From assembly GCA_963695915.1 (NCBI GenBank), contig CAVOIO010000030.1, positions 5,814 to 69,813 on the forward strand: 64,000 nucleotides of DNA. The letters run 5' to 3'. Position 1 is the first letter of the stretch; every line of letters begins with the position of its first letter. This stretch comes from an uncultured beta proteobacterium. Its GTDB lineage: Bacteria > Pseudomonadota > Gammaproteobacteria > Burkholderiales > JACQAP01. Position numbers and translations under genes: made by a program. The notes under the pieces are model-generated. The model was not told the origin of the DNA and searched no databases. It saw only the letters and a list, made by a program, of their open reading frames with translations. Shown here piece after piece: positions 4,995 to 60,996 of this stretch.

Positions 4995-5041
4995 GAGGAT
5001 TATTGGTGATTAACCGTCAAAGCAGAAGCAAGGACGTGAAT

Positions 5042-5213
5042 TCTCACCACTAAGACACGAAGAAGAGAAAAAAAGTATACGTGTGCAAAGCTCCAATAGG
5101 TGGATGTTCCGACCAAACACGAAGTTGGCGGGAGAGGATCACGAACAGTCACCGCGCTTCTCTCCCAATTAGTGTAAGGATTCCTGTTTGTTCTTCGTGT
5201 CTTCGTGGTGAGA
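5042..5213. repeat. IR element copy 1 (TCTCACCAC termini, CACGAAG arms, ~120 bp unique core)
   Basis: The left arm is TCTCACCACTAAGACACGAAGAAGAG. The right arm TTCTTCGTGTCTTCGTGGTGAGA is its reverse complement. The element lies between proA and lpdA. Confidence 0.85.
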
Positions 5214-5253
5214 TTTGCTTTTCTATAGTTCGCAGCCTGACCGAGGCAAGGGA

Positions 5254-9721: not shown

Positions 9722-9729
9722 GTAAGAGC

Positions 9730-9824
9730 AGGGGCGAGGGGCGAGGAGTGAGGGGCGAGTAAGTGAAACGTGAATTTTGGCTGCGCGGTATTGACTCGTT
9801 CCTCGTTCCTCGTCCCTCGCCCCT
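9730..9824. repeat. IR element copy 2 (GGCGAGG-type arms, 32 bp spacer)
   Basis: The 31-nt arm AGGGGCGAGGGGCGAGGAGTGAGGGGCGAGT pairs with GACTCGTTCCTCGTTCCTCGTCCCTCGCCCCT. On the plus strand this gives 26 Watson-Crick and 5 G:T pairs with no other mismatch. The element lies between ptsH and ptsI. Confidence 0.8.
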
Positions 9825-9827
9825 GAT

Positions 9828-12031: not shown

Positions 12032-13498
12032 TTACATGTGATAAGCCGTTTCGCCGTGCTCGGTGATGTCCAGGCCTTCGCGCTCCTTGTCTTCCGGTAC
12101 GCGCAGTCCGACGATCACATCGGCGATCTTGTAGGCGATGAAGGCGACCACTGCAGACCAAAGGATCGTCACGCCAATCGCCTTGGCCTGGATAATCACC
12201 TGCGCGGCGATGGTCCCGAAGCCCGGCTTCATTTCGAACCAGTTGTTGGGGAAGCCGGGTCCGCCGAGCGAAGGGGAATTGAACACGCCGGTCAGGAGCG
12301 CACCAAGAGCCCCGCCTACCGCGTGCACGCCGAAAACGTCCAGCGAATCGTCCGCCTTGAGCAGTTTTTTCAGACCGTTCACGCCCCAGAGACAGACCAG
12401 GCCGGCGGCGATGCCGATCACGAAGGCGCCGGGAATTCCGACATTGCCCGCGGCCGGGGTAATCGCCACCAGGCCTGCCACGGCACCGGATGCAGCGCCG
12501 AGCATGGACGGCTTGCCCTTGAAGAGCCACTCGCCGAACATCCAGGACAGCACCGCACAAGAGGTCGCCAGATAAGTGTTCATGAATGCGAGCGCCGCGG
12601 AGTTGTTCGCTTCCAGTGCCGATCCGGCGTTGAATCCGAACCACCCGAACCACAGCAGGGACGCCCCGATCATGGTCATCGTGAGGTTATGCGGTGACAT
12701 GGCTTCCTTGCCGAACCCGATGCGCTTGCCCATCACGAACGCGCCGACCAAGCCGGCAATACCGGCGTTGATGTGGACTACCGTGCCGCCGGCGAAGTCC
12801 AGCGCACCCCATTGCCATAGCAGGCCTGCCTTCGCATTCTGCGCGTCCACGACGTCGGCCGCGGTGTATGCATCCGGACCGGGCCAGAACCAGACCATGT
12901 GCGCGATCGGAACATAGGAGAACGTGAACCATAGCACCATGAAGATCAGCACGGCCGAAAATTTCGCCCGCTCGGCGAATGCGCCCAGGATCAGGCAGCA
13001 GGTGATCGCCGCGAACGTCGCTTGGAATCCCACGTAGACCAGTTCAGGAATCGGCGTCGCCTTGCTGAAGGTCGCTGCCATCGAGAACTCGCCCTTGCCA
13101 GCGTCGAACGTGCCGTTCAGGAACAGCCGGTCGAGCCCGCCGAAGTAGGCGTTGCCCTCGGTGAAGGCCATGCTGTAGCCGTAAATGCACCAAAGCACGG
13201 TGACCAGCGAGAACACGACGAAAACCTGCATCAGCATCGAGAGCATGTTCTTCGAGCGCACCATTCCGCCATAGAACAGGGCAAGTGCAGGCACGCTCAT
13301 CAGCAACACGAACGCGGTCGAAGTCAGCATCCAAGCGACATCGCCTTTGTTGGGCGCAGGCGCCGGAGTTGCGGCCGGCGCGGCCGCGGCCGGAGTCGCT
13401 GCCGCGGTATCGGCGGATGTTGCTTCGTCGGCAAGAACCGGGGCCGACAGGCCGATGGCTCCGCACAGAGCGAAAAGCATCAGAATTTTTCTAATCAT
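12032..13498 (-). CDS. amtB: ammonium transporter
   Basis: Begins with the signal peptide MIRKILMLFALCG (GGGAGA ribosome-binding site). Amt family motifs include AWMLTSTAFVLLM and FAGGTVVHINAG. Confidence 0.92.
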   Translation of the reverse strand: MIRKILMLFALCGAIGLSAPVLADEATSADTAAATPAAAAPAATPAPAPNKGDVAWMLTSTAFVLLMSVPALALFYGGMVRSKNMLSMLMQVFVVFSLVTVLWCIYGYSMAFTEGNAYFGGLDRLFLNGTFDAGKGEFSMAATFSKATPIPELVYVGFQATFAAITCCLILGAFAERAKFSAVLIFMVLWFTFSYVPIAHMVWFWPGPDAYTAADVVDAQNAKAGLLWQWGALDFAGGTVVHINAGIAGLVGAFVMGKRIGFGKEAMSPHNLTMTMIGASLLWFGWFGFNAGSALEANNSAALAFMNTYLATSCAVLSWMFGEWLFKGKPSMLGAASGAVAGLVAITPAAGNVGIPGAFVIGIAAGLVCLWGVNGLKKLLKADDSLDVFGVHAVGGALGALLTGVFNSPSLGGPGFPNNWFEMKPGFGTIAAQVIIQAKAIGVTILWSAVVAFIAYKIADVIVGLRVPEDKEREGLDITEHGETAYHM

Positions 13499-13508
13499 GA
13501 CGTTCTCC

Positions 13509-13898
<390 letters not shown>

Positions 13899-13912
13899 TC
13901 ATGACGCGTTTG

Positions 13913-14692
13913 CTAAAATGTCTTGCCGACCGACAGGATCACGGCGGAATCACCTATGAAAACGGCCTCGGTCCCCTTGAAGACCGTGTAGTTCGCTTCC
14001 ACGGCATCGGTGTCCTTATAAGCCAGGCCGAAGTTGAAGCCGCTCCACAGATAGTTCACGCCGATCTTGTAGTCGGTATAGTCGAGGTCAACGCCGGGAG
14101 CGGTACCTTCGACGGTCTGTTGGCCGACATGCGCAGTGATCGAGAAGGCGTCGTTGATCGGATATGTGGCGTTGAGTTCGATGTACATTGAACCGTCGCT
14201 GCCGCCGCTGTAGATTGCCGGAAACGTGGTCTCGTTTCCGCCGAAGAAATCCGACACTGCGTAGGAAAGCTTCGCACTTATCCATTTCCAGGAACCGCCG
14301 ACGTAAATTTCGGTCGTGTCGAACTTTTCGCCGGGTGCAGGCTCGCCACCGGGGTAGTAATAGAGAAGCGCGCCGACGTTGACGCCGAAATCGCCAAAGG
14401 TCTTGGCCCAGCCGCCGTAGAAGTCCCACTCCATGTTTGCGGGGCCGTACAGACTCTGACTCACGTTGGAAGCCCAGGTGCCAAGGTACAGGCCGCTCGA
14501 ATGGGCATAGTCGAAGCCTCCTTGGATCGCCGGCTCTTCCAGCGTCTGGCTCAATCCGCGAAAGGAGTAGTCGGATACGAAATTGAGATTGCCCGTAATA
14601 GTGTGTGGAGACGCGGCCTCCGCGGCCAATACGGCGCCGGGGAGCGCGAAAGCGCTGGCAACGGCAACAGCTAGAAGGTTCTTCTTCAGCAT
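13913..14692 (-). CDS. TorF-family putative outer-membrane porin
   Basis: 259 aa with a signal peptide, an alternating beta-strand pattern and a terminal F (...SVGKTF). The N-terminus ...GNLNFVSDYSFRGLSQT is typical of the TIGR02001 family, which is often linked to glnK-amtB. Confidence 0.75.
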   Translation of the reverse strand: MLKKNLLAVAVASAFALPGAVLAAEAASPHTITGNLNFVSDYSFRGLSQTLEEPAIQGGFDYAHSSGLYLGTWASNVSQSLYGPANMEWDFYGGWAKTFGDFGVNVGALLYYYPGGEPAPGEKFDTTEIYVGGSWKWISAKLSYAVSDFFGGNETTFPAIYSGGSDGSMYIELNATYPINDAFSITAHVGQQTVEGTAPGVDLDYTDYKIGVNYLWSGFNFGLAYKDTDAVEANYTVFKGTEAVFIGDSAVILSVGKTF

Positions 14693-14929: not shown

Positions 14930-15193
14930 GTGGATACCAAGTTATTGGATGAATTGAATCGCAGGGTGCGCGATTTGATCGCCGCCACCCCGGCGAAAGA
15001 CATCGAGAAGAATCTGCGCGCGCTCCTGTCGAGCGCTTTCTCGCGGCTCGACCTAGTGACGCGCGAAGAATTCGATGTGCAGCGGGAGGTGCTCCGCCAT
15101 GCCCGCGAGAAGCTGCAGCAGATGGAAGCGCGGGTTGCGGAGCTGGAAGCGAAACTGAGTCAAAAGGGACGAGGGGCGAGGGACGAGGGATGA
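14930..15193 (+). CDS. ubiK: ubiquinone biosynthesis accessory factor UbiK (YqiC/BMFP)
   Basis: GTG start after a GAAGGAGG ribosome-binding site. The sequence runs VDTKLLDELNRRVRDLIAATPAKDIEKNLRALL...REEFDVQREVL. The last ~9 codons (KGRGARDEG) are encoded by the arm of IR element copy 3. Confidence 0.8.
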   Translation: MDTKLLDELNRRVRDLIAATPAKDIEKNLRALLSSAFSRLDLVTREEFDVQREVLRHAREKLQQMEARVAELEAKLSQKGRGARDEG

Positions 15194-15323
15194 GTGGAAA
15201 GAGCATGAGCGTCATTGCGATGAAGGCCGGTCCTACCGCTTTGGAGCTGATCCAACTCCCGTTCCGGATTGTGGCCTTTCGTACAAAGTCCTTTCTCGAC
15301 CCTCGCCCCTCTTCCCTCGTCCC
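15166..15323. repeat. IR element copy 3 (GACGAGG/GGCGAGG arms)
   Basis: GGGACGAGGGGCGAGGGACGAGGGA pairs imperfectly with TCGACCCTCGCCCCTCTTCCCTCGTCCC around a ~100 bp core. The element lies between ubiK and comM. Confidence 0.8.
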
Positions 15324-15336
15324 TTAAGTCGCAAAC

Positions 15337-16840: not shown

Positions 16841-17045
16841 TCACGGCAAAGGCGCAAAGGAAACGCAAAGAAAGACAAATACAAATGTTATAAAAAGCGC
16901 GTTCGTACTGGACGCCTCCTTAAACTTGAGCACATATGCTGAGAGCAAAGATTCCGTGAACGAGAACACATTTTGTATTTCCTCGAGTTGCCTTTGCGTA
17001 CCCCTCGAGGGGGTATTGAAAAGATTGTTTGCGCCTTTGCGGTGA
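16841..17045. repeat. IR element copy 4 (CGCAAAG arms; right arm carries the CCCCTCGAGGGGG module)
   Basis: The left arm TCACGGCAAAGGCGCAAAGGAAACGCAAAGAAAGACAAATACAAA is mirrored by the right arm ...TTTTGTATTT...CCTTTGCGTACCCCTCGAGGGGGTATTGAAAAGATTGTTTGCGCCTTTGCGGTGA. Confidence 0.85.
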
Positions 17046-17054
17046 GGAAAATCC

Positions 17055-25625: not shown

Positions 25626-25655
25626 CCGGAGCCCACACTTTGAAAGAACCATACT

Positions 25656-25843
25656 TCTCACCACGAAGGCACGAAGAACACGAAGAGATCAAGATCTGGT
25701 TGGGATTTACTTGGTGAACTCTCAAATTGTGGTAACTGTGCGAATTTGCCGGTACCTCATGTTGGACCTGCTCTCGTTCATGTGAAGTCCATCCGGCCTT
25801 GCTCTTCGTGTGTCTTCGTGTTCTTCGTGCCTTCGTGGTGAGA
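25656..25843. repeat. IR element copy 6 (canonical CACGAAG arms, 114 bp core)
   Basis: TCTCACCACGAAGGCACGAAGAACACGAAGAG pairs with CTCTTCGTGTGTCTTCGTGTTCTTCGTGCCTTCGTGGTGAGA. The right arm has one extra 8-10 nt unit. Confidence 0.9.
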
Positions 25844-25947
25844 TGTCAGGCCGCTGGTTTTCCCCTCAGGCGGTCTCCTCAATGCAACCGGCGGGATTCC
25901 GTTACCATGAGCGCTTTTTTGCGCAGCCGCCCGGCATCGAAACCGCC

Positions 25948-31608: not shown

Positions 31609-31616
31609 GAAAATCG

Positions 31617-31802
31617 CCACCACGGAGACACAAAGGACACAAAGGAATCCAGGAAAAGAACTTCAGGTGAACTCGTGGCGAACAAGCCACGACGTTGCCG
31701 CCAGATACGAACCACGCACGATTCGTCCTGCTAGGCAAGCATTCTAGTGTGTGTTCCGTCGTTTGATAATCTTCCTTCCGTGCCTCTGCGTCTCTGCGGT
31801 GA
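31617..31802. repeat. IR element copy 7 (CACAAAGG versus CCTCTGCG arms)
   Basis: CCACCACGGAGACACAAAGGACACAAAGGAA pairs with TTCCTTCCGTGCCTCTGCGTCTCTGCGGTGA. Five of the mismatches are A:C on the plus strand, which would be U:G on the minus strand. The element lies between msrP and msrQ. Confidence 0.8.
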
Positions 31803-31864
31803 AAGATCCTCATGTATCCAATCGCAACCTGAAGCCGGAATAGATAAAGTGGATCAAGGCGGCG

Positions 31865-32461: not shown

Positions 32462-32523
32462 TTGCAGGCGAGCCTCCCGGCGTTTACAGTTGCCGGCCAG
32501 AACTTTCGCAAAAAGGGTGTCGC

Positions 32524-33624
32524 ATGCTGGTCGGCGTGCCGAGGGAAATCAAGGATCACGAGTACCGGGTTGGCCTCACGCCGGCGGGTGTCCATGCGCC
32601 TCGTGGACGCGGCCACCAGGTCTGCGTCGAGACCGGTGCCGGCGCACGCATCGGATTTGCCGATGCCGACTACCTATCGGCTGGCGCGCGCATCGTTGCT
32701 TCTGCGAAGGAGGTCTTTGCTGCGGACATGGTGGTGAAAGTCAAGGAGTTGCAGCCGGCGGAGTTCGGCCTCCCGCGCCGCGGGCAGATCCTGTTTGCCT
32801 ACCAGCACCTGGCACCGGAGCCCGGAGTTGCTCGACGCATTGCTGGCTAGCGGCTGTCAGCGGAATTGCTTATGAGACGGTGACTGACGCGCAGGGCCGG
32901 TTGCCGCTGCTGGCGCCGATGTCGCGGATCGCCGGCAGACTCTCGGTACAGGTTGGTGCCTGGGCGTTGCAGATGGCCAATGGCGGCAGCGGCGTGCTGC
33001 TCGGCGGAGTGCCCGGCGTTGCTGCCGGGAAGGGTGGTGGTTATCGGTGCCGGCGCCGCCGGCGCGAACGCAGTGCAGATCGCGGCCGGCATGGGCGCCG
33101 ACGTCACGGTGCTCGATGTCGACCTCGAGCGCCTCGCGCATCTCGACGAGGTTTATCGCGGCCGGGTGAAAACCTGTTTCTCGGAAGCGCTGGCGATTGC
33201 AGAGCAGGTGGCGCAGGCCGACCTGGCGATCGGAGCGCTTCTCGTGCCCGGCAAGCTCGCCCCCAGGCTGATCTCGCGCAAGCTCCTGCAACGCATGCGG
33301 CCGGGTTCGGTGCTGGTGGACATTGCGATCGACCAGGGCGGCATCGCCGAGACCTCGCGCCCGACTTCGCACTCGCAGCCGCTGTTCGTGGAAGAAGGCG
33401 TGGTGCACTACTGCGTGCCCAACATGCCCTCGGCCTGCGCGCGCACGGCGACGCTGGCGCTGACGCAGGCGACTTTTCCCTATGTGCTAAAGCTTGCCGA
33501 CCGCGGACTCGACGCTCTATCCGACGATGCGGGACTGGCGAACGGCTTGCAGGTCCACGCCGGGCAGGTTACCCACCGCGGCCTGGCTGAAGATGTGAAG
33601 CGGCCGTATCCGCGGTTATGCTGA
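32524..33624 (+). pseudogene. ald: alanine dehydrogenase, about 3 frameshifts
   Basis: [20 protein letters not shown]..., [53 protein letters not shown], and ...VHYCVPNMP. Breaks lie near 32828, 32858 and 33038. Confidence 0.9.
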
Positions 33625-33674
33625 AGTCGCCGCCGGTATGCGTCGGGCCTGAAGCAAACGGCCAAACCGAGAGT

Positions 33675-33702
33675 TCTCACCACGAAGACACGAAGAAAAA
33701 CC
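33675..33702. repeat. solo left-type arm of the IR element at the left edge of the AT-richer island
   Basis: TCTCACCACGAAGACACGAAGAAAAACC has no complementary arm nearby. The nearest complementary arm is at 38277-38309. Confidence 0.7.
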
Positions 33703-33777
33703 AAACAAGAGTATGCGAACCTCGATCGTCGGGCCGGTCAGTTTCACAGGACACGTCTTGAAAAGGCTGTTTAACGT

Positions 33778-35206
33778 ATGACTCACACCACCACACTTAT
33801 TATGGTCGACGGGGTGCGGATCGTCGTTCCTGACTCACTGGATCTGATCACGTCCTATGTGCTGCTGGAGCAGCAGGATTGGTTTGAGGATGAAATAAAA
33901 TTCGTGCGCCGCTTGCTAAAGCCGGGGCAGAAAGTCATTGATATCGGTGCTAACTACGGTGTCTATGCTCTATCCATGGCACGGACAGTGGGTCCAACAG
34001 GATGCGTGTGGGCCTTCGAGCCAGCATCAAGCACTGCGACACTGCTAGCCGAGGGAATCGCCGTCAATGGTTTTGCGCAGGTAGTGCTTGAACAAAGCGC
34101 CCTATCAAGCACCTGTGGTACGGCCCAGTTGTCTTTGAATGAAAATTCAGAATTAAATGCGCTGGTTCCTGGCAAGCCGTCATCGAGCGCTAGTGAGACT
34201 GTGCCTCTGGTAACCCTTGACGAGTGCATGGAACGCTATGGCTGGCGGGATATCGATTTCATGAAAATCGATGCGGAAGGGGAGGAAGCGAACATACTGA
34301 AAGGGGGGAAACGATTTTTCGCAGAACTGTCACCACTGGTTCAGTATGAGATAAAAGCAGGTGCAGACCTGCATATGGAACTGGTGCAAGATTTCGCCGC
34401 ACTTGGATATGACTCCTACCGACTAGTGCCCGGCCTCGACCTGCTGGTTTCCTTCGATGCCGAATCAACACCCGATGGATACTTGCTCAATTTATTCTGC
34501 TGTAAGCAGGATTGCGTCGAACGGCTTGCCACCCATGGTTTCTTGCTGGCTTCGTGTGGCCGACCTGCCGACCACGGGGACGGAGCGATTCATGGACATC
34601 TCGGGAAAAGTCAAGAACCGCAATGCATACGACTGGCGTCACACCATTGCCAAACTGCCATACGGGGCTCAACTCGCCAATCATTGGGAACAGACGGTTG
34701 CTGCAGGAAACAGCGCCGAGGTCGAAGTGGCACTATCCTTCTACGCTGTCAGCCGAGATTCGTCTTTATCTTCGACTGAGCGCTTCGGTGCACTTGAAGC
34801 CAGTTTCAGCTTGCTCAAGATCCTGTGCGAGCGCCAGCCTTCATGTCTTCGCTTAGCAAGCATGGCGCGAGTAGCGCGAGATTACGGCGCACGGTCGCTC
34901 GCCGTAAACGCGCTTCAACAACTCACCATCGCCATCCAAAAGCATAATCGGGTGGATCCGAGTGAGCCGTTTCTCGTGCCGGGCGAACGATTCGATTCTA
35001 TCCCCACTGCCGGTGCAGCCGTTAGTAACTGGGTTCTAGCAGCCGTCCTGGAGGAAATTGAACGGCTTGGATCCTTTTCGTCCTTTTATACTGGAGCCTC
35101 GGCCCGGCAGCGCCTGGAAATTATCCGCAAGCTAGGGTTTGGAAGCGCGGAAATGGAACGCCGCTTGCGCTTGTTGCAGAAGCGTTTTGGCCTGCCCACG
35201 TCATAG
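33778..35206 (+). pseudogene. FkbM-family methyltransferase fused to a ~210-aa C-terminal domain of unknown function, one frameshift near 34555
   Basis: The methyltransferase part includes VIDIGANYGVYALSMA, AFEP and IDFMKIDAEGEE. It continues in the +1 frame as ...DWRHTIAKLPYGAQLANHWE...LQKRFGLPTS. Confidence 0.75.
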
Positions 35207-35401
35207 CTGCATTGCAAAGCTGGAGCATGTGTGCCACCGAAAATCACCGCCGGCTAAGCCGCCGTGCTACGGCCGTGTAATGCAGACCTTTAAAGTGCTC
35301 AAATGAATAACCAATCACTTGGCCGCCTCAACGCGCAAATCCGCTAAGTTCGCTTAGGTCTGGTACTTGGCGGAAATTGGGAATATCGCGCGCAGTCCGG
35401 A

Positions 35402-37549
35402 CTATGAAACTGTGCGGCCCGGTCCGCTGCGCTGGTACATTTCGATGTAGGCGGCCTCAAGTCCACGGCAATACCGGACGGGATCAAACATCGCGGGAGC
35501 CGCGACGTTCGCACGCACCTTATCCTTCAACGTACGCAACCGCCCCTCGTCGAGCGCCAGTTCAACCGCCATGCGCTCGTAGTCGTCGAGCGTCTCGACC
35601 ACTAACTCGGAACACCCGACTGCATGCAACAGACTGCCAGCCACACGACTCGCAAATGTCCGACCTGAACGGGTAATCAAGGGCACCCCGGCCAACAACG
35701 CATCACTCGCGGTGGCATGAGCGTTGTACGGATGGGAATCAAGAAAGAGATCGGCGAGGGTCAGGCGCGCCATATGGTCGGCGTGATCCGCGAGACGCGG
35801 GGCAAAGATGATCCGGCCAGGATCGACGCCGCGGCGAACCGCTTCCATCGATAGGTTCGCCCGCGAGACTGCGCTGCCCTGCTGCAACCAAAGTACGCTG
35901 TTTGGTACACGAAGCAGGATGCGCATCCAAACGTCGAACACCGACGGTCCGATCTTGAATTGATTGTTGAAGGCGCAGAACACCACGCCGGCCGGTGGCA
36001 GCCCGGCTTGCTCACGGGTAGGTTTGCTCTGGGCGATAGAACGACGGGAAATGGCCAGATAGCAGCCTGGCAAGTAAGCAACGTGCTCGGTGAAGAACGC
36101 TTTCGCCGAGTCAGGCACCAAGTACCGATCCGCCAAGATATAGTCGTGGCAACCACTTCCGACCGTCCCGGCGAATCCAAGGTAGTTCACCTGAATAGGT
36201 GCAACGCGTTGCGCGAAGATACCTATTCGGTGGCCCGTAGTAAATCCCATCAGATCTACCGCGATGTCCACCCGACGGTCTCGAAGCGCGGCGACGATTC
36301 GTTCATTCCGCGAGTTGTGCATATCCAGGAACTCATCGAATTCGGCAGTCAGCCTGCGACGGAGAGGTCCTCCGTCATCGGGTCCGAGAGAGACTCCGAT
36401 TGTCTCGAAGCGTCCCCGGTCGTGAGCTTCGAGCACATCGGCTAGCAGCATGGCAACCGGGTGTTCCCGAAAGTCGGCGGAGATATAGGCAATCCGCAGC
36501 CGTCCGCGACTCAACGGGAAGTCCCACGTCGGCGCCGTCCGTTGCCTCATCTCGTAACGCGCAAGGATCTTTGCGCCCAGCAATTGCTGCGATGGGTCGT
36601 CTGAAATCGCGAGCAGCGTAAACGGTCGAATGACAGGTTTGCCTTGATGCAGGTCCTTTTCGATCCGGGTCAGTTGCTCATCGAACCCGGACCAGTCGCA
36701 GCAGTGCAGCCGCGCGTCGAGAAGCGCACCACGGGCGAAAGGGTGCTCGGGCGACACTTCCAGAAGCGCCCTTAATGCACCCACCGCTTCTTCGTACCGA
36801 CCCAGTTCCTGCAAAAGGGTGCGTCGGCTGTCCAACGTCGCAATGTGATCAGAGCGCAGAGCGAGTGCCTGGTCGAAAGCTGCAAGCGCCTCCGCGGCGC
36901 GACCTTGCGCGCGTAGCGCAATACCGCGATTGTGAAGGGCATCGACATAGTCGGGCGCCCTCTCAATGGCGCGATCGAAATCCTGCAGTGCCTCATCGAT
37001 CCGGCCAAGATCGAGAAGAACATTTCCGCGATTGAAGTGTGGCTGCGGAGCGCCGGGAGTCAAGGCGATTGCACGAGTGAGCGCGTCGAGCGCTTCATCG
37101 AAGCGGTGCAACGCAGCGAGGGCGGCTCCGCGATTGGTCATCAGACGTTCGTTTGCGGGCGATAGCGCCAAGGCGTGGTCGTAGTCTTCAATAGCCTTGG
37201 CCGGCCGGCCGAGTTCCATCAGAGCGTTGCCGCGATTGATCAGCACCTCCACCGACTCCGGTTCCATGCGCAAAGCGCGCCCGAAAAGTTTGCAGGCCTC
37301 CTCGCCCCGTCCTCGCTGGATTTCGAGATGGCCCAAAAGTCGAAGGACATGGAACTGATCGCCGTCGGAACGAAGCAGCTTGCGGTACAGACGCTCGGCC
37401 TCATCCAGCGCGCCTGCCCTGTGTAACTGGGACGCCCGGTCGAACAGTGCCCTCAAGCCGTCGTTACTTCGATTTCCCACTCGATCCCAATCGGTTGTCG
37501 CAGACCGCAAAGGCCCGTCCCATGGCTTGACCCAACCGCCAAAAGGCAT
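35402..37549 (-). CDS. TPR-repeat protein with C-terminal GT41 (SPINDLY/O-GlcNAc-transferase-like) glycosyltransferase domain
   Basis: 715 aa and intact. It has about 8 TPR units (e.g. ALRMEPESVEVLINRGNAL). The GT41 core includes RIAYISADFREHPVAML, VNYLGFAGTVG, FCAFNNQFKI, and DLFLDSHPYNAHATASDALLAGVP. Confidence 0.85.
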   Translation of the reverse strand: MPFGGWVKPWDGPLRSATTDWDRVGNRSNDGLRALFDRASQLHRAGALDEAERLYRKLLRSDGDQFHVLRLLGHLEIQRGRGEEACKLFGRALRMEPESVEVLINRGNALMELGRPAKAIEDYDHALALSPANERLMTNRGAALAALHRFDEALDALTRAIALTPGAPQPHFNRGNVLLDLGRIDEALQDFDRAIERAPDYVDALHNRGIALRAQGRAAEALAAFDQALALRSDHIATLDSRRTLLQELGRYEEAVGALRALLEVSPEHPFARGALLDARLHCCDWSGFDEQLTRIEKDLHQGKPVIRPFTLLAISDDPSQQLLGAKILARYEMRQRTAPTWDFPLSRGRLRIAYISADFREHPVAMLLADVLEAHDRGRFETIGVSLGPDDGGPLRRRLTAEFDEFLDMHNSRNERIVAALRDRRVDIAVDLMGFTTGHRIGIFAQRVAPIQVNYLGFAGTVGSGCHDYILADRYLVPDSAKAFFTEHVAYLPGCYLAISRRSIAQSKPTREQAGLPPAGVVFCAFNNQFKIGPSVFDVWMRILLRVPNSVLWLQQGSAVSRANLSMEAVRRGVDPGRIIFAPRLADHADHMARLTLADLFLDSHPYNAHATASDALLAGVPLITRSGRTFASRVAGSLLHAVGCSELVVETLDDYERMAVELALDEGRLRTLKDKVRANVAAPAMFDPVRYCRGLEAAYIEMYQRSGPGRTVS

Positions 37550-37813
37550 GTGACATTGGGTTCCCGCATTCCCGCACTACAGCGCGGCGGGTCAGTTTAG
37601 CCGTCAGGCCACATCTTCGCTACCAAAGATATTGTTCTTCATAGACCAGGGCCTTCTCATCATCGTTGCGTTGCTTGACCTTTCCCGCATTCATTTGGAT
37701 TCCTTCCGGCTGATAGGTGCGAGCAATATATCCCCTTTAGATGTAGAGACGGGCCCGACCACTGCAACTCATTCATTCTGACCTGCAAGAGCGTCGCGAC
37801 TACTCAGGCCGGC

Positions 37814-38047
37814 TTGTTTTCCTTCGGCTGCTTCGATGCTGCAAGGGTCACCGTACCTATCCTTGTGATACGCGGCGATTCCGACACCGATGCGACACGT
37901 GAAGATAATCAGCTGCTGATGAACGCATCGGGCAGCGGGGTGAAGGAATGTGTAGTGGTCTCGAATGGCGGCCATGTTCTGCAGTTCGAGAAAGCGAACG
38001 TACAGCTTTACCAGGCGGCCCAGAGTTTTCTGGAGGCAAGGAAGTAG
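37814..38047 (+). pseudogene. 3' remnant of an alpha/beta-hydrolase gene
   Basis: Only the C-terminal ~75 aa are present (VPILVIRGDSDTDAT...VVVSNGGHVLQFEK). No N-terminal nucleophile region lies upstream. Confidence 0.45.
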
Positions 38048-38276
38048 GCTGACGAGAACAATGAAACCCACTGTCCGGTAAAAACGGGGCTACCAATCGG
38101 TCACTACCAAACAGAACGTAACTGCGCCCGCTAAAGCGCGGGCGTTCGAAGAGGATTGAACGGCTGCCTTGGATATGAAATTGCAGTTCGGACAATGCCT
38201 GTGTGGTCGAATGCCGCCAACCACCCGTTGGCCCGCGCAACCTTACTCCGGTATCTCTATTTTTCTCTTTCGCCCT

Positions 38277-38309
38277 GCTTCGTATTTCTTCGTGCCTTTG
38301 TGCGGAGAA
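38277..38309. repeat. solo right-type arm of the IR element at the right edge of the AT-richer island
   Basis: The reverse complement of CTGCTTCGTATTTCTTCGTGCCTTTGTGCGGAGA is TCTCCGCACAAAGGCACGAAGAAATACGAAGCAG. It shares the flank AGTTCTC and the run CACGAAGAAA with the arm at 33675. Confidence 0.65.
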
Positions 38310-38332
38310 CTTGATTTCTTGCGGCGAAGCTT

Positions 38333-39238
38333 TCAGTTCTGGGTCTCCCGGGATTTCTCCCCGCGCGCGGCGACGAAGATGCCGGCGAGCAACAGCACGA
38401 AACCGGCCAACCGCAGCGCGGTGAATCCTTCTTCGAAGAAGAACCACGCGAGAATCGCGGCGCCGACCGGCTCGCCCAGTATTGCGATCGCAACGAAGGT
38501 GGCGGTGAGCCGTCTCACCGCCCAGTTGAAAGCGGTGTGTCCGGCAAGCTGCGGACCAATCGCAAGCAACACCATGAATCCCCATGCCGGCACCGGCATC
38601 GCGATCAGTGACGTGCCGCTTGCCCACAGCGCGGCGCCCAGCAGCAACGCCGCTGCCGTATAGGTCAGCCAGACATACGCGGTGAGCGATAAGCGCGCGC
38701 GCAGCGCGCGCCCCACCAGGAGATAGCCCGACGCGGCGATCGCCCCGGCCAGGGCAAGCGCATTGCCCAGTGGTGGATTTGTGGCCGTTGATTCGCTCCA
38801 GACGGAATCGGCGGCAAAGATCAGAACGCTACCGGCGACGGTGAGCCCGATGCCCGCGAGTGCGGCAGGCACGGGACGCTCGCGCAACAGCACCGCAGAA
38901 GCCAACCCGACCCAGAGCGGATTGGTGGTGACCAGCGCCGCACTGCTTGCGACCGACGTGTACTCCAGCGAGGAGATCCACGTCCAGAAGTGAATGGCAA
39001 GAAACAGGCCGGACAGCAGGCACATGCCGAGCTCGCGTCGGCCCAGCCGCATGATTTCCCGTCCCGCTTTCAGCCAGGCGAAAGGCGCCAGAATCGCAGC
39101 GGCCAGTCCCAGCCGCACCGCGGCGATCGTGAGGGACGAAGCACCTTCGAATTGCGCCAACCGGATCAGGATCGAGGCAGTCGAAACCACGGCGACCGCG
39201 CCGGCGAGGACGATGAAAGAAAGCCAACGTGGAGACAT
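38333..39238 (-). CDS. EamA/DMT-family transporter
   Basis: 301 aa with ten predicted hydrophobic segments and duplicated EamA halves. Confidence 0.8.
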   Translation of the reverse strand: MSPRWLSFIVLAGAVAVVSTASILIRLAQFEGASSLTIAAVRLGLAAAILAPFAWLKAGREIMRLGRRELGMCLLSGLFLAIHFWTWISSLEYTSVASSAALVTTNPLWVGLASAVLLRERPVPAALAGIGLTVAGSVLIFAADSVWSESTATNPPLGNALALAGAIAASGYLLVGRALRARLSLTAYVWLTYTAAALLLGAALWASGTSLIAMPVPAWGFMVLLAIGPQLAGHTAFNWAVRRLTATFVAIAILGEPVGAAILAWFFFEEGFTALRLAGFVLLLAGIFVAARGEKSRETQN

Positions 39239-41285: not shown

Positions 41286-41543
41286 TCTCACCACGAAGGC
41301 TGACAACAACAAACCTGAACGCTCACCACGAAGGCACGAAGACACGAAGAAAGGCAAGACAATGTTGTTTGATTGCCGGATTGCATGGATTTGGCAGTTC
41401 TCTCGATACCGATTGCACGGTTCTCATCGATTAAGGCTGTCGTAGTCGTCGGACACGTGAGGACAGCGTGTTCTGTACAGCGAGTTCATTTGCAGAAATT
41501 GTTCTTTAGGTTTTCTTCGTGTCTTCGTGCCTTCGTGTTGAGA
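41286..41543. repeat. IR element copy 8 (duplicated left terminus, 153 bp core)
   Basis: The left side reads TCTCACCACGAAGGC, a 20 nt gap, then GCTCACCACGAAGGCACGAAGACACGAAGAAAGG. The right arm is TTTTCTTCGTGTCTTCGTGCCTTCGTGTTGAGA. Confidence 0.88.
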
Positions 41544-46860: not shown

Positions 46861-46951
46861 TCAAAGGTCCTTTGGTCTTTTCCCGGCGATCCCTTCGCGC
46901 ACCCCTCAAGGGGGTGTTGAAAGGAAGTATTGGAACGAATCTTTGCGGTGA
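46861..46951. repeat. half IR element (right terminus with the CCCCTCAAGGGGG module)
   Basis: ...CCTTCGCGCACCCCTCAAGGGGGTGTTGAAAGGAAGTATTGGAACGAATCTTTGCGGTGA. No left partner was found. Confidence 0.65.
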
Positions 46952-54030: not shown

Positions 54031-54107
54031 TGGTGGTGATAGGTGGACTTGAACCACCGACCCCAGCATTATGAGTGCTGTGCTCTAACCAACTGAGCTA
54101 TATCACC
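54031..54107 (-). tRNA. tRNA-Met (anticodon CAU), elongator type; tRNA-Ile2 (lysidine) cannot be excluded
   Basis: A hand-folded cloverleaf fits GGTGATA/TATCACC, GCTC/GAGC, CAGCA-CTCATAA-TGCTG, and GGTGG-TTCAAGT-CCACC, with an encoded CCA end. Confidence 0.9.
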
Positions 54108-58978: not shown

Positions 58979-59015
58979 GGCGGCGATGACAACTAAGTAC
59001 AGCGAAAAGCGAAAA

Positions 59016-59264
59016 TCTCACCACGGAGGATTCTTTTCTATACCCCCTTGAGGGGTGCACAGAGGACACGGATACCCTCGCGATAGCGTGGAGTACCCAA
59101 TTAGGAATACCGAAAACGAGGTAAAACATGTGGCACTTTAAGATCGTGCCTGCTGCAAAAGTGACTACCGTTACCTGGTTTTACTCACGAATTCCTTTTT
59201 TTGCTCGTGCCCTTCCTCCGTGCACCCCTCAAGGGCGTATAGAAAAGAATCCTCCGTGGTGAGA
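59016..59264. repeat. IR element copy 9 (58-nt arms, both carrying the CCCTTGAGGGG module)
   Basis: The left arm is TCTCACCACGGAGGATTCTTTTCTATACCCCCTTGAGGGGTGCACAGAGGACACGG. The right arm is ...GTGCACCCCTCAAGGGCGTATAGAAAAGAATCCTCCGTGGTGAGA. Confidence 0.9.
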
Positions 59265-59284
59265 CTTACGGTTTTTTGGCAGGA

Positions 59285-60749: not shown

Positions 60750-60759
60750 GACACGTACG

Positions 60760-60963
60760 TCTCACCACGAAGGCCCGAAGGACGCGAAGAAACACCAAGA
60801 AGGACGGGATGCGGAAATCTACCCATCCATTTTGTGTAGGCTGTAGTTCCCGCCAACCGCTTCCGCAAGGTATTCCCCTTCGAAATGAAGATCCGTTTTT
60901 GCTAGCCATTTTTTTTGGGGCTTTCTTCGTGAACCTTCGTGTTCTTCGTGCCTTCGTGGTGAG
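60760..60963. repeat. IR element copy 10 (CACGAAG/CCGAAGG arms)
   Basis: TCTCACCACGAAGGCCCGAAGGACGCGAAGAAACACC pairs with TTTCTTCGTGAACCTTCGTGTTCTTCGTGCCTTCGTGGTGAG. The element lies between rpe and gph. Confidence 0.88.
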
Positions 60964-60996
60964 CATTCTGGTTTTCTGCGTTTGCGGCGGTATCTG

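Follow-up and report, generated by a model that had tools for sequence, protein, structure and literature searches.

Bacterial pangenomes contain small genomic islets, which lie at recombination hotspots between conserved core genes, and eukaryotic foldback (FB) elements combine arms of short tandem repeats with variable central segments that sometimes hold genes. Repetitive extragenic palindromic (REP) elements are preferred insertion targets of insertion sequence (IS) elements (Tobes and Pareja 2006, PMC1525189), and pairs of MITEs (miniature inverted-repeat transposable elements) are known to bracket cargo (PMC10969869, PMC6382973). Here we analyse a small repeat element of an uncultured beta proteobacterium (Burkholderiales; JACQAP01), in particular the copy located between the convergent genes ald and eamA, whose two arms face each other across a gene island. 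The analysed stretch, hereafter the window, consists of 64,000 nt (assembly GCA_963695915.1, contig CAVOIO010000030.1, positions 5,814-69,813, forward strand) and originates from a soil or sediment member of the Burkholderiales. The source genome holds many copies of this small, non-coding, hairpin-forming intergenic element. At the ald-eamA spacer, the two arms are the halves of one split element, and foreign DNA from about 33713 to 38181 (~4.4-4.5 kb) sits between the element interior and the ald-side arm.

The locus comparison was anchored on eamA and covered the ald-eamA spacer in about 20 related loci, labelled with L numbers, from GTDB genomes and metagenome contigs. All relatives compared are uncultured Burkholderiales/Betaproteobacteria, with EamA identities of 83-97%. 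Furthermore, metagenome contigs were scanned for the exact 20-mer arm core, which was matched in at least 120 contigs, and the window region was compared with assembled contigs of four metagenomes (runs including X2, X3 and X4).

Two facing arms, one element

The split copy of the element consists of the following parts.

33672-33712, forward strand: left (ald-side) arm, composed of AGTTCTCACC, then two NCACGAAG octamers, then AAAAACCAAAC
33713-33726: short remnant of an older island junction (reverse complement GTTCGCATACTCTTG), present in the window, L001 and L004
38182-38275, reverse strand: block A, the interior of the ancestral small element, still joined to the right arm
38276-38311, reverse strand: right (eamA-side) arm (reverse complement AGTTCTCCGCACAAAGGCACGAAGAAATACGAAGCA), with three changes from the family core

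The arm motif AGTTCTCNNCACNAAGNCACGAAGAAA has seven matches in the window, compared to zero expected, and is free of mismatches only at 33672-33698 (forward strand) and 38285-38311 (reverse strand). The facing arms form an inverted repeat of 36 nt (33672-33707 / 38276-38311) that is 81% complementary and encloses 4568 nt. A sequence-only reading of the window had described two unpaired arms facing each other across about 4.6 kb. This description holds, apart from the start of the left arm, which lies at 33672 and not, 3 nt further in, at 33675. Within 500 bp of either arm, no partner is present (alignment scores 12-14; the degenerate partners of other apparent solo arms score 25-49).

The pairing of the arms is resolved by relatives in which the element is unsplit. 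A complete small element occupies the ald-eamA spacer in L144 and L145 (184-bp spacer) and in L147 (304 bp). The L144 and L147 elements align with the window from the ald side through the left arm (33618 to ~33712), and from the eamA side through the right arm (38365 to 38194 or 38182). As the alignment holds on both sides, the two arms of the window are the arms of one resident element. Orthologues of the left arm are the ald-side arms of L144 and L147, where the element is unsplit, and the arms of L001, L003 and L004. Those of the right arm are the arms following the eamA stop codon in L001, L002, L003, L007, L140, L141, L144 and L147. The sequence-only reading had regarded the pairing as unproven and a split by foreign DNA as one of two options; the orthologous unsplit elements settle the former and bear out the latter.

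An alternative would be that two unrelated solo arms, left behind by separate elements 3' of ald and 3' of eamA, face each other by chance. True solo arms do occur in the family, with no detectable partner for about 25 of the 60 arms examined. However, the unsplit orthologue pairs exactly these two arms within the same flanks, and this pair of arms is found at matching positions in L001 and L003. The former observation refutes a chance pairing, which we regard as barely credible.

Block A can be aligned with the interior of the element in L144 and L147, where it is unsplit, and also with L140, L002 and L007, the L007 homology reaching 38145. Between 70 and 85 nt of the unsplit interiors align, and the 90-140 nt beside the right arm correspond to block A. 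Among the loci examined, block A was not found away from the orthologous locus. The unsplit elements of L144 and L147 lack the junction remnant at 33713-33726. No duplicated flank longer than ~2 bp was seen when the empty sites of L146 and L008 were compared with the filled sites of L144 and L147, and no target duplication surrounds the window copies.

The inserted DNA is foreign in composition. The GC content of the island (33699-38284) is 0.569, compared to 0.618 for the rest of the window, and none of 504 equal-length windows outside the island is as low (minimum 0.599). Its tetranucleotide L1 distance of 0.232 lies more than six standard deviations outside the values found elsewhere (0.143 +/- 0.014, maximum 0.179). 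The lower GC content that had been judged by eye is thereby confirmed, along with an atypical tetranucleotide profile.

Island content and states of the ald-eamA spacer

The island and its flanks comprise the following features.

32490-33624, forward strand: 3' part of ald, alanine dehydrogenase (Pfam AlaDh_PNT_C, E = 2.9e-71); conserved left flank, frame-broken in the assembly
33727-35263, forward strand: FkbM-family methyltransferase module, with boundaries taken from homology to L134-L139; GC 0.54
33778-35206, forward strand: FkbM coding sequence, ~474 aa (Pfam Methyltransf_21, TIGR01444)
35402-37549, reverse strand: OGT-like glycosyltransferase of family GT41 with TPR repeats, 715 aa (Pfam Glyco_transf_41, E = 7.7e-79, and TPR families)
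37665-38337: 673-bp polymorphic segment, holding the hydrolase remnant, the element interior, the right arm and the last eamA codons
37814-38047, forward strand: 77 aa containing GDSD and GGH motifs, probably what remains of the 3' end of an alpha/beta-hydrolase gene
38124-38144: GC-rich hairpin 3' of the hydrolase remnant
38333-39238, reverse strand: eamA, DMT-family transporter (Pfam EamA, E = 1.2e-29); conserved right flank, convergent with ald

The ald gene is syntenic in L003, L004, L006, L008, L143, L144, L146 and L147. Within the island, FkbM is convergent with GT41 and is accompanied by the hydrolase remnant. The GC content at third codon positions (GC3) is 0.55-0.58 in FkbM and 0.66 in GT41, compared to 0.70-0.84 in the flanking genes. 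GT41 shares 94% identity with its L004 counterpart, in protein and DNA alike, and 93% DNA identity with that of L134. A +1 frameshift near 34554 divides FkbM into two frames, and related contigs have one base fewer at this position; the read-through product can be aligned along its entire length (100%) with members of a large family of proteins of 474-475 aa (best identity 92%). This frameshift contradicts the earlier statement that the island is almost free of frame breaks. The methyltransferase and the TPR-GT41 protein named in the same reading were recovered. Its truncated hydrolase stands less firmly, as the match to Pfam Hydrolase_4 covers positions 186-238 of 239 with 21 bits (cut-off 27), and the 77-aa open reading frame (ORF) has no match in NCBIfam. 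The same remnant is present in L140; a relationship to the hydrolase of L002 was rejected, the two showing no similarity. Judged from their sequences, FkbM and GT41 would form a two-gene glycosylation module that was horizontally acquired and is accessory.

Gene and tRNA scans of the window revealed no transposase, integrase or tRNA in or beside the island, the sole tRNA lying at 54031-54107. Searches against Rfam yielded tRNA only (whole window at gathering thresholds; 33400-38500 at E <= 1), and no flanking direct repeats were found at the island ends. A 20-nt inverted repeat around FkbM (33730-33749 / 35402-35421) is not kept around FkbM in L134, L135 and L137 and is probably due to chance.

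Two further observations concern these genes. A motif of ~40 nt (GGTCAGTTYCACAGAACACGTCTTGAA...) upstream of FkbM (window 33738-33777) is conserved in L134-L139 across unrelated contexts and may be a promoter or regulatory element travelling with FkbM. Compared to the contigs of related populations, the window contains extra single bases at 32820-33023, 33373-33377, 33608, 34554 and 35289, by which ald and FkbM are broken; these suggest assembly indel errors, real pseudogenes being the alternative.

The site is polymorphic among relatives, being empty, occupied by an unsplit element, or occupied by the same arms around different cargo. Both states that the sequence-only reading had expected of the spacer in related genomes, an intact small element and an empty site, were found. 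Empty sites lacking arms occur in L008 (spacer of ~55 bp), L146 (36 bp) and L143, where the genes overlap by 4 bp. In addition to the unsplit elements described above, L006 carries a variant small element with CACGGAG-type arms, different from that of L144.

Among the filled sites, that of L003 consists of the same two arms enclosing 0.8 kb; this DNA contains a single small ORF and has a GC content of 0.52, compared to ~0.61-0.64 in the flanks. In L001, L141 and L142, the same two arms surround 9.9 kb (L001 4100-13500; L141 3287-8765). This cargo encodes a caspase-like Peptidase_C14 protein of 1410-1449 aa that bears a NACHT/AAA domain and may act in defence. It also encodes an IS91-family transposase together with a tyrosine recombinase, which in L001 lie ~0.5 kb inwards of the ald-side arm. 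It further includes a 290-aa protein with no assigned function, as well as a BrnT-like toxin and a group II intron fragment, both called by eye from the sequence. L002 and L007 show the arm followed by block A and more genes up to the contig end, the cargo of L002 consisting of a toxin-antitoxin pair and a hydrolase. L140, with 97% EamA identity, is window-like in its succession of arm, block A and hydrolase remnant.

The island itself is a mosaic that has been remodelled, as seen in the swap of the FkbM module in L004 and in a 673-bp deletion allele. In L004, GT41 is followed by sulfotransferase, MltF-like and YcxB-like genes in place of the FkbM module; L134 carries a membrane protein, FkbM and GT41. 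The L004 sulfotransferase (13001-14000) has a GC content of 0.478, compared to 0.605 for the locus, and by this measure looks like a separate recent acquisition. Both loci lack 37665-38337 (blastn breakpoints 37664|38338), and L004 has thereby lost the eamA-side arm and kept the ald-side arm. The deletion leaves eamA with a stop codon that comes from sequence upstream of GT41. Islands lacking a flanking arm, a state that the sequence-only reading had named as contrary to its proposal, thus do occur in relatives, but as a derived form only, since it was this deletion that removed the eamA-side arm from L004 and L134. The joint of the deletion is present in contigs of three public metagenomes (X2, X3 and X4), two of which (X3 and X4) also hold the undeleted form. 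A joint removing the whole island was not seen in the contigs of the four metagenomes.

The junctions allow the history of the insertions to be followed. The remnant at 33713-33726 is common to the window, L001 and L004, which traces their islands back to a single, later remodelled insertion. In L003, the junctions differ on both sides, and the locus belongs to another clade of a quick, unbootstrapped neighbour-joining tree of lysA-DUF1178-eamA; because of these two differences, its insertion is probably an independent event. In the same tree, alleles with an island, with a small element and with an empty site are intermingled, which suggests exchange by recombination through the flanks.

The element family and the origin of the island

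Arms of the family consist of CTCACC followed by two to four tandem NCACGAAG octamers. Apart from the split copy, the window contains the following copies.

5039-5216, 25653-25846, 41322-41542 and 60757-60967: complete small copies, with 121-159 nt between the arms
31613-31803: degenerate copy between msrP and msrQ

Complete copies fold as long hairpins (z = -8.9 for 25645-25855; z = -4.2 for the L144 element). We identified about 96 facing arm pairs no more than 600 bp apart, nearly all of them spaced by 11-185 nt. As a rule, the interior sequence is unique to each genomic site. One subfamily differs in this respect: its six copies (window 5039-5216; L028 3122-3310; L055 309-500; L061 2460-2646; L062 17-199; L081 1306-1498) share arms and interior at 77-97% identity, and their flanks show no similarity, even at the protein level. 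These six copies in unrelated flanks indicate that whole small elements disperse and move.

At orthologous spacers, the arms follow genome-specific dialects (CACGAAG, CACGGAG(GA), CGCAAGG, CGCAGAG and CACCAAG), and the partner arm changes in step, so that pairing is kept though the sequence shifts. The dialects were read at window 31613-31803, L143 8925-9165, L144 9620-9820, L146 12800-12985, L147 12970-13175 and L004 18300-18560, and upstream of lysA in L002 and L007. The msrP-msrQ spacer holds three element types in different genomes, each with its own arms and interior. The copy upstream of lysA (window 41322-41542; L004 7446-7666; L001 824-1037) has a common interior with 71-87% identity. 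In L004, this interior runs opposite to that of the window and L001, between flanks of unchanged orientation; either recombination between the arms has flipped it, or the element as a whole was re-inserted in the opposite direction.

Related repeats were also noted. A second arm type with a nested small palindrome, TACCCCCTTGAGGGGTGC, is represented in the window by one full copy and two solo arms (59005-59275; 16991-17047; 46892-46950), and TACCCCCTTGAGGGGTGC-type nested hairpins also lie inside the eamA-side arm of L002, L003 and L007 and the ald-side arm of L147. A separate inverted-repeat family of GGGGCGAGG-type tandem units is located at window 9729-9825 and 15164-15325.

Does the family carry cargo, as the sequence-only reading had offered for its second option? 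Cargo-bearing copies were sought in the one genome window and ~0.9 Mb of related contigs. Only four facing pairs of kilobase scale appeared among the ~96, namely those of the window and L001, which represent the same locus, and those of L074 and L019. The 4.0-kb pair of L074 is an artefact (assembly palindrome), since its contig is an inverted duplication whose two ends carry the same genes. In the 5.4-kb pair of L019, a degenerate partner of its own lies within 250 bp of either arm (scores 49 and 36) and the GC content is normal, so that two separate small elements are present. The search for further gene-sized segments between facing arms that the earlier reading had proposed thus left none. 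Copies of the FkbM module with 83-86% DNA identity are found in L135-L139, in unrelated contexts that lack arms, and in the FkbM-GT41 arrangement of L134 another gene stands where the arm would be. At the ald-eamA locus itself, the arms stay in place while the cargo varies between genomes. Element copies between co-oriented genes (msrP-msrQ, upstream of lysA) never carry cargo in the orthologues examined. Clustering of 2659 ORFs from the ~0.9 Mb of contigs, none of them a complete genome, revealed no transposase-like family recurring beside arms; the top recurrent neighbour families look like ordinary transport and metabolic paralogues, as judged by eye from one representative each. Because FkbM and GT41 occur without arms and no other genuine kilobase-scale pair was found among the ~96, a cargo-carrying family is not supported.

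The same observations bear on a related proposal, in which the arms would be the terminal inverted repeats of a non-autonomous cargo transposon, either MITE-bracketed or foldback-like, and would have arrived together with the island as one piece. Such a transposon would fit the empty sites that lack both arms and island (L008, L143 and L146), as well as a dispersed family with a subfamily conserved in arms and interior across six unrelated contexts. Yet the unsplit elements at the same site share the inner flank of the island, which means that the arms pre-date the cargo, and L144 and L147 largely refute the proposal on this ground. The cargo changes between genomes around stationary arms, FkbM (L135-L139) and FkbM-GT41 (L134) are found with no arm nearby, neither a target duplication nor a transposase is present, and the other long pairs, L019 and L074, were rejected. 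We therefore consider a cargo transposon highly improbable.

Taken together, we favour, at a probability of roughly 0.8, the explanation that one resident element was split by a foreign islet, with the arms as bystanders in a permissive convergent spacer and the island alleles spreading by recombination through the flanks. In this sequence of events, one small element resided between ald and eamA, two convergent core genes that meet 3' to 3'. Horizontally acquired DNA of lower GC content came to lie inside it, leaving the arms to face each other across the island. The arms would be bystanders rather than agents of the insertion, and the spacer between convergent genes would tolerate insertions, such that DNA can land and survive there. 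The island alleles may then have spread between lineages by homologous recombination via the conserved flanks. An ordinary insertion into a permissive spacer is the most likely mechanism. The element fills ~165 of the 184 bp of the unsplit spacer, and almost any insertion would consequently fall between the arms. The cargo-free copies between co-oriented genes fit selection against polar insertions.

Several points weigh against this explanation. At its ends, the island shows no target duplication, integrase or transposase, and the ~100-nt interior has received at least two sets of junctions (L003 compared to the window, L001 and L004), which could mean that it is actively targeted rather than merely tolerant. 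The lysA-DUF1178-eamA tree has no bootstrap support. The region is covered by contigs, not reads, such that rare excised forms would escape notice, and the scan for cargo-bearing copies extended over the one window and the ~0.9 Mb of related contigs.

The multiplicity of junctions leads to a further possibility, in which the element interior serves as an actively targeted docking or recombination site, where DNA would enter between the arms time and again by way of a hairpin-recognising IS or recombinase, or of hairpin/cruciform breakage and repair; the ald-eamA island would then represent the large-scale version of a general, cassette-like turnover. Consistent with active targeting, several distinct junctions lie inside one element of ~165 bp, and L003 carries its cargo in a different clade with different junctions. 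The inverted interior upstream of lysA in L004 implies that arms or whole elements recombine or re-insert, different element types share the same spacer (L006 compared to L144 at ald-eamA; three types at msrP-msrQ), and the ald-side arm of L001 is followed, ~0.5 kb further in, by genes for an IS91-family transposase and a tyrosine recombinase. Some insertion sequences, moreover, are known to insert preferentially into REP elements (PMC1525189). Against active targeting, cargo of kilobase scale is found at only one locus among the ~96 arm pairs, and the island of the window has neither a recombinase nor defined ends. Untargeted insertion would produce the same picture, given that the element fills nearly the whole spacer, and the one ald-side junction common to the window, L001 and L004 means that several of the different cargos are remodelled versions of a single event. 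We consider targeted docking unlikely. Its generalisation to the family is a doubtful one: octamer-armed hairpins would be recombination-active docking sites, with interiors that are inverted, replaced and occasionally loaded with kilobase-scale DNA by a candidate dedicated enzyme or through hairpin breakage, amounting to a cassette exchange in uncultured Burkholderiales of which the ald-eamA islet would be only the part in view.

With the split of a resident element as the preferred explanation, the locus provides a clean natural case in which a repeated extragenic hairpin marks the boundaries of a small polymorphic gene islet. The stages are kept in relatives, from the empty site and the unsplit element to elements split by different cargos and the loss of an arm by deletion. 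This accounts for the two apparent orphan arms, flags FkbM-GT41 as putative horizontally moving glycosylation genes, and makes the arms of the octamer family usable as landmarks for insertions. The repeat family is more unusual than the island, with its tandem-octamer arms, compensatory dialects and an interior inverted at one site, and may merit a description of its own.

Comparison with known systems

The small element shares several properties with REP elements, bacterial interspersed mosaic elements (BIMEs) and REP doublets forming hairpins (REPINs) (PMC3116915, PMC3333891, PMC2817692). Like these, it is abundant, intergenic and non-coding, forms long hairpins and is organised as inverted doublets with a short variable linker; it likewise displays genome-specific dialects at orthologous sites and no obvious target duplication. 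Unlike these, its arm consists of tandem octamers that are not palindromic alone and pair only with the partner arm, and the interiors reach up to 185 nt. The arm ends bear no GTAG or CGTC tag upon direct reading, and no transposase of the REP-associated tyrosine transposase (RAYT) type (Y1/HUH) was found near arms in the ~0.9 Mb of contigs, none of them a complete genome. The split copy resembles a REP element disrupted by an IS in that foreign DNA lies inside a repeated extragenic hairpin and leaves two facing halves. In contrast to an IS-split REP element, the insert is a gene islet of several kilobases lacking an IS of its own, and targeting is only a possibility.

With bacterial MITEs (Correia/NEMIS, ERIC, MITEAba12), the element has in common terminal inverted repeats, small size, multiple copies and the lack of coding capacity, as well as a subfamily that moves as a whole. 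It differs from them in having no target-site duplication and, among the loci examined, no cognate autonomous IS. In contrast to a MITE-bracketed unit, the island is enclosed by the halves of one copy instead of two full copies, and the bracketed unit was not found elsewhere. The small element hence resembles REP/BIME/REPIN sequences or MITEs, but lacks defining features of both groups. Foldback elements offer an analogy only, with no homology and no sign of a common mechanism; the cargo described here does not travel with the arms.

The island differs from a classical integrative genomic island, having no att/tRNA site, integrase or flanking direct repeats. It corresponds more closely to genomic islets, with which it shares the atypical composition, the patchy mosaic content, the alleles that depart from the core-gene tree and the location between convergent genes. 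As such, it is a fairly ordinary islet of a known kind, horizontally acquired and situated at a polymorphic intergenic hotspot, and taken alone it reveals no new mechanism. What sets it apart from a typical islet, besides the lack of tRNA, integrase and direct repeats, is the split repeat element, which makes its boundaries unusually readable.

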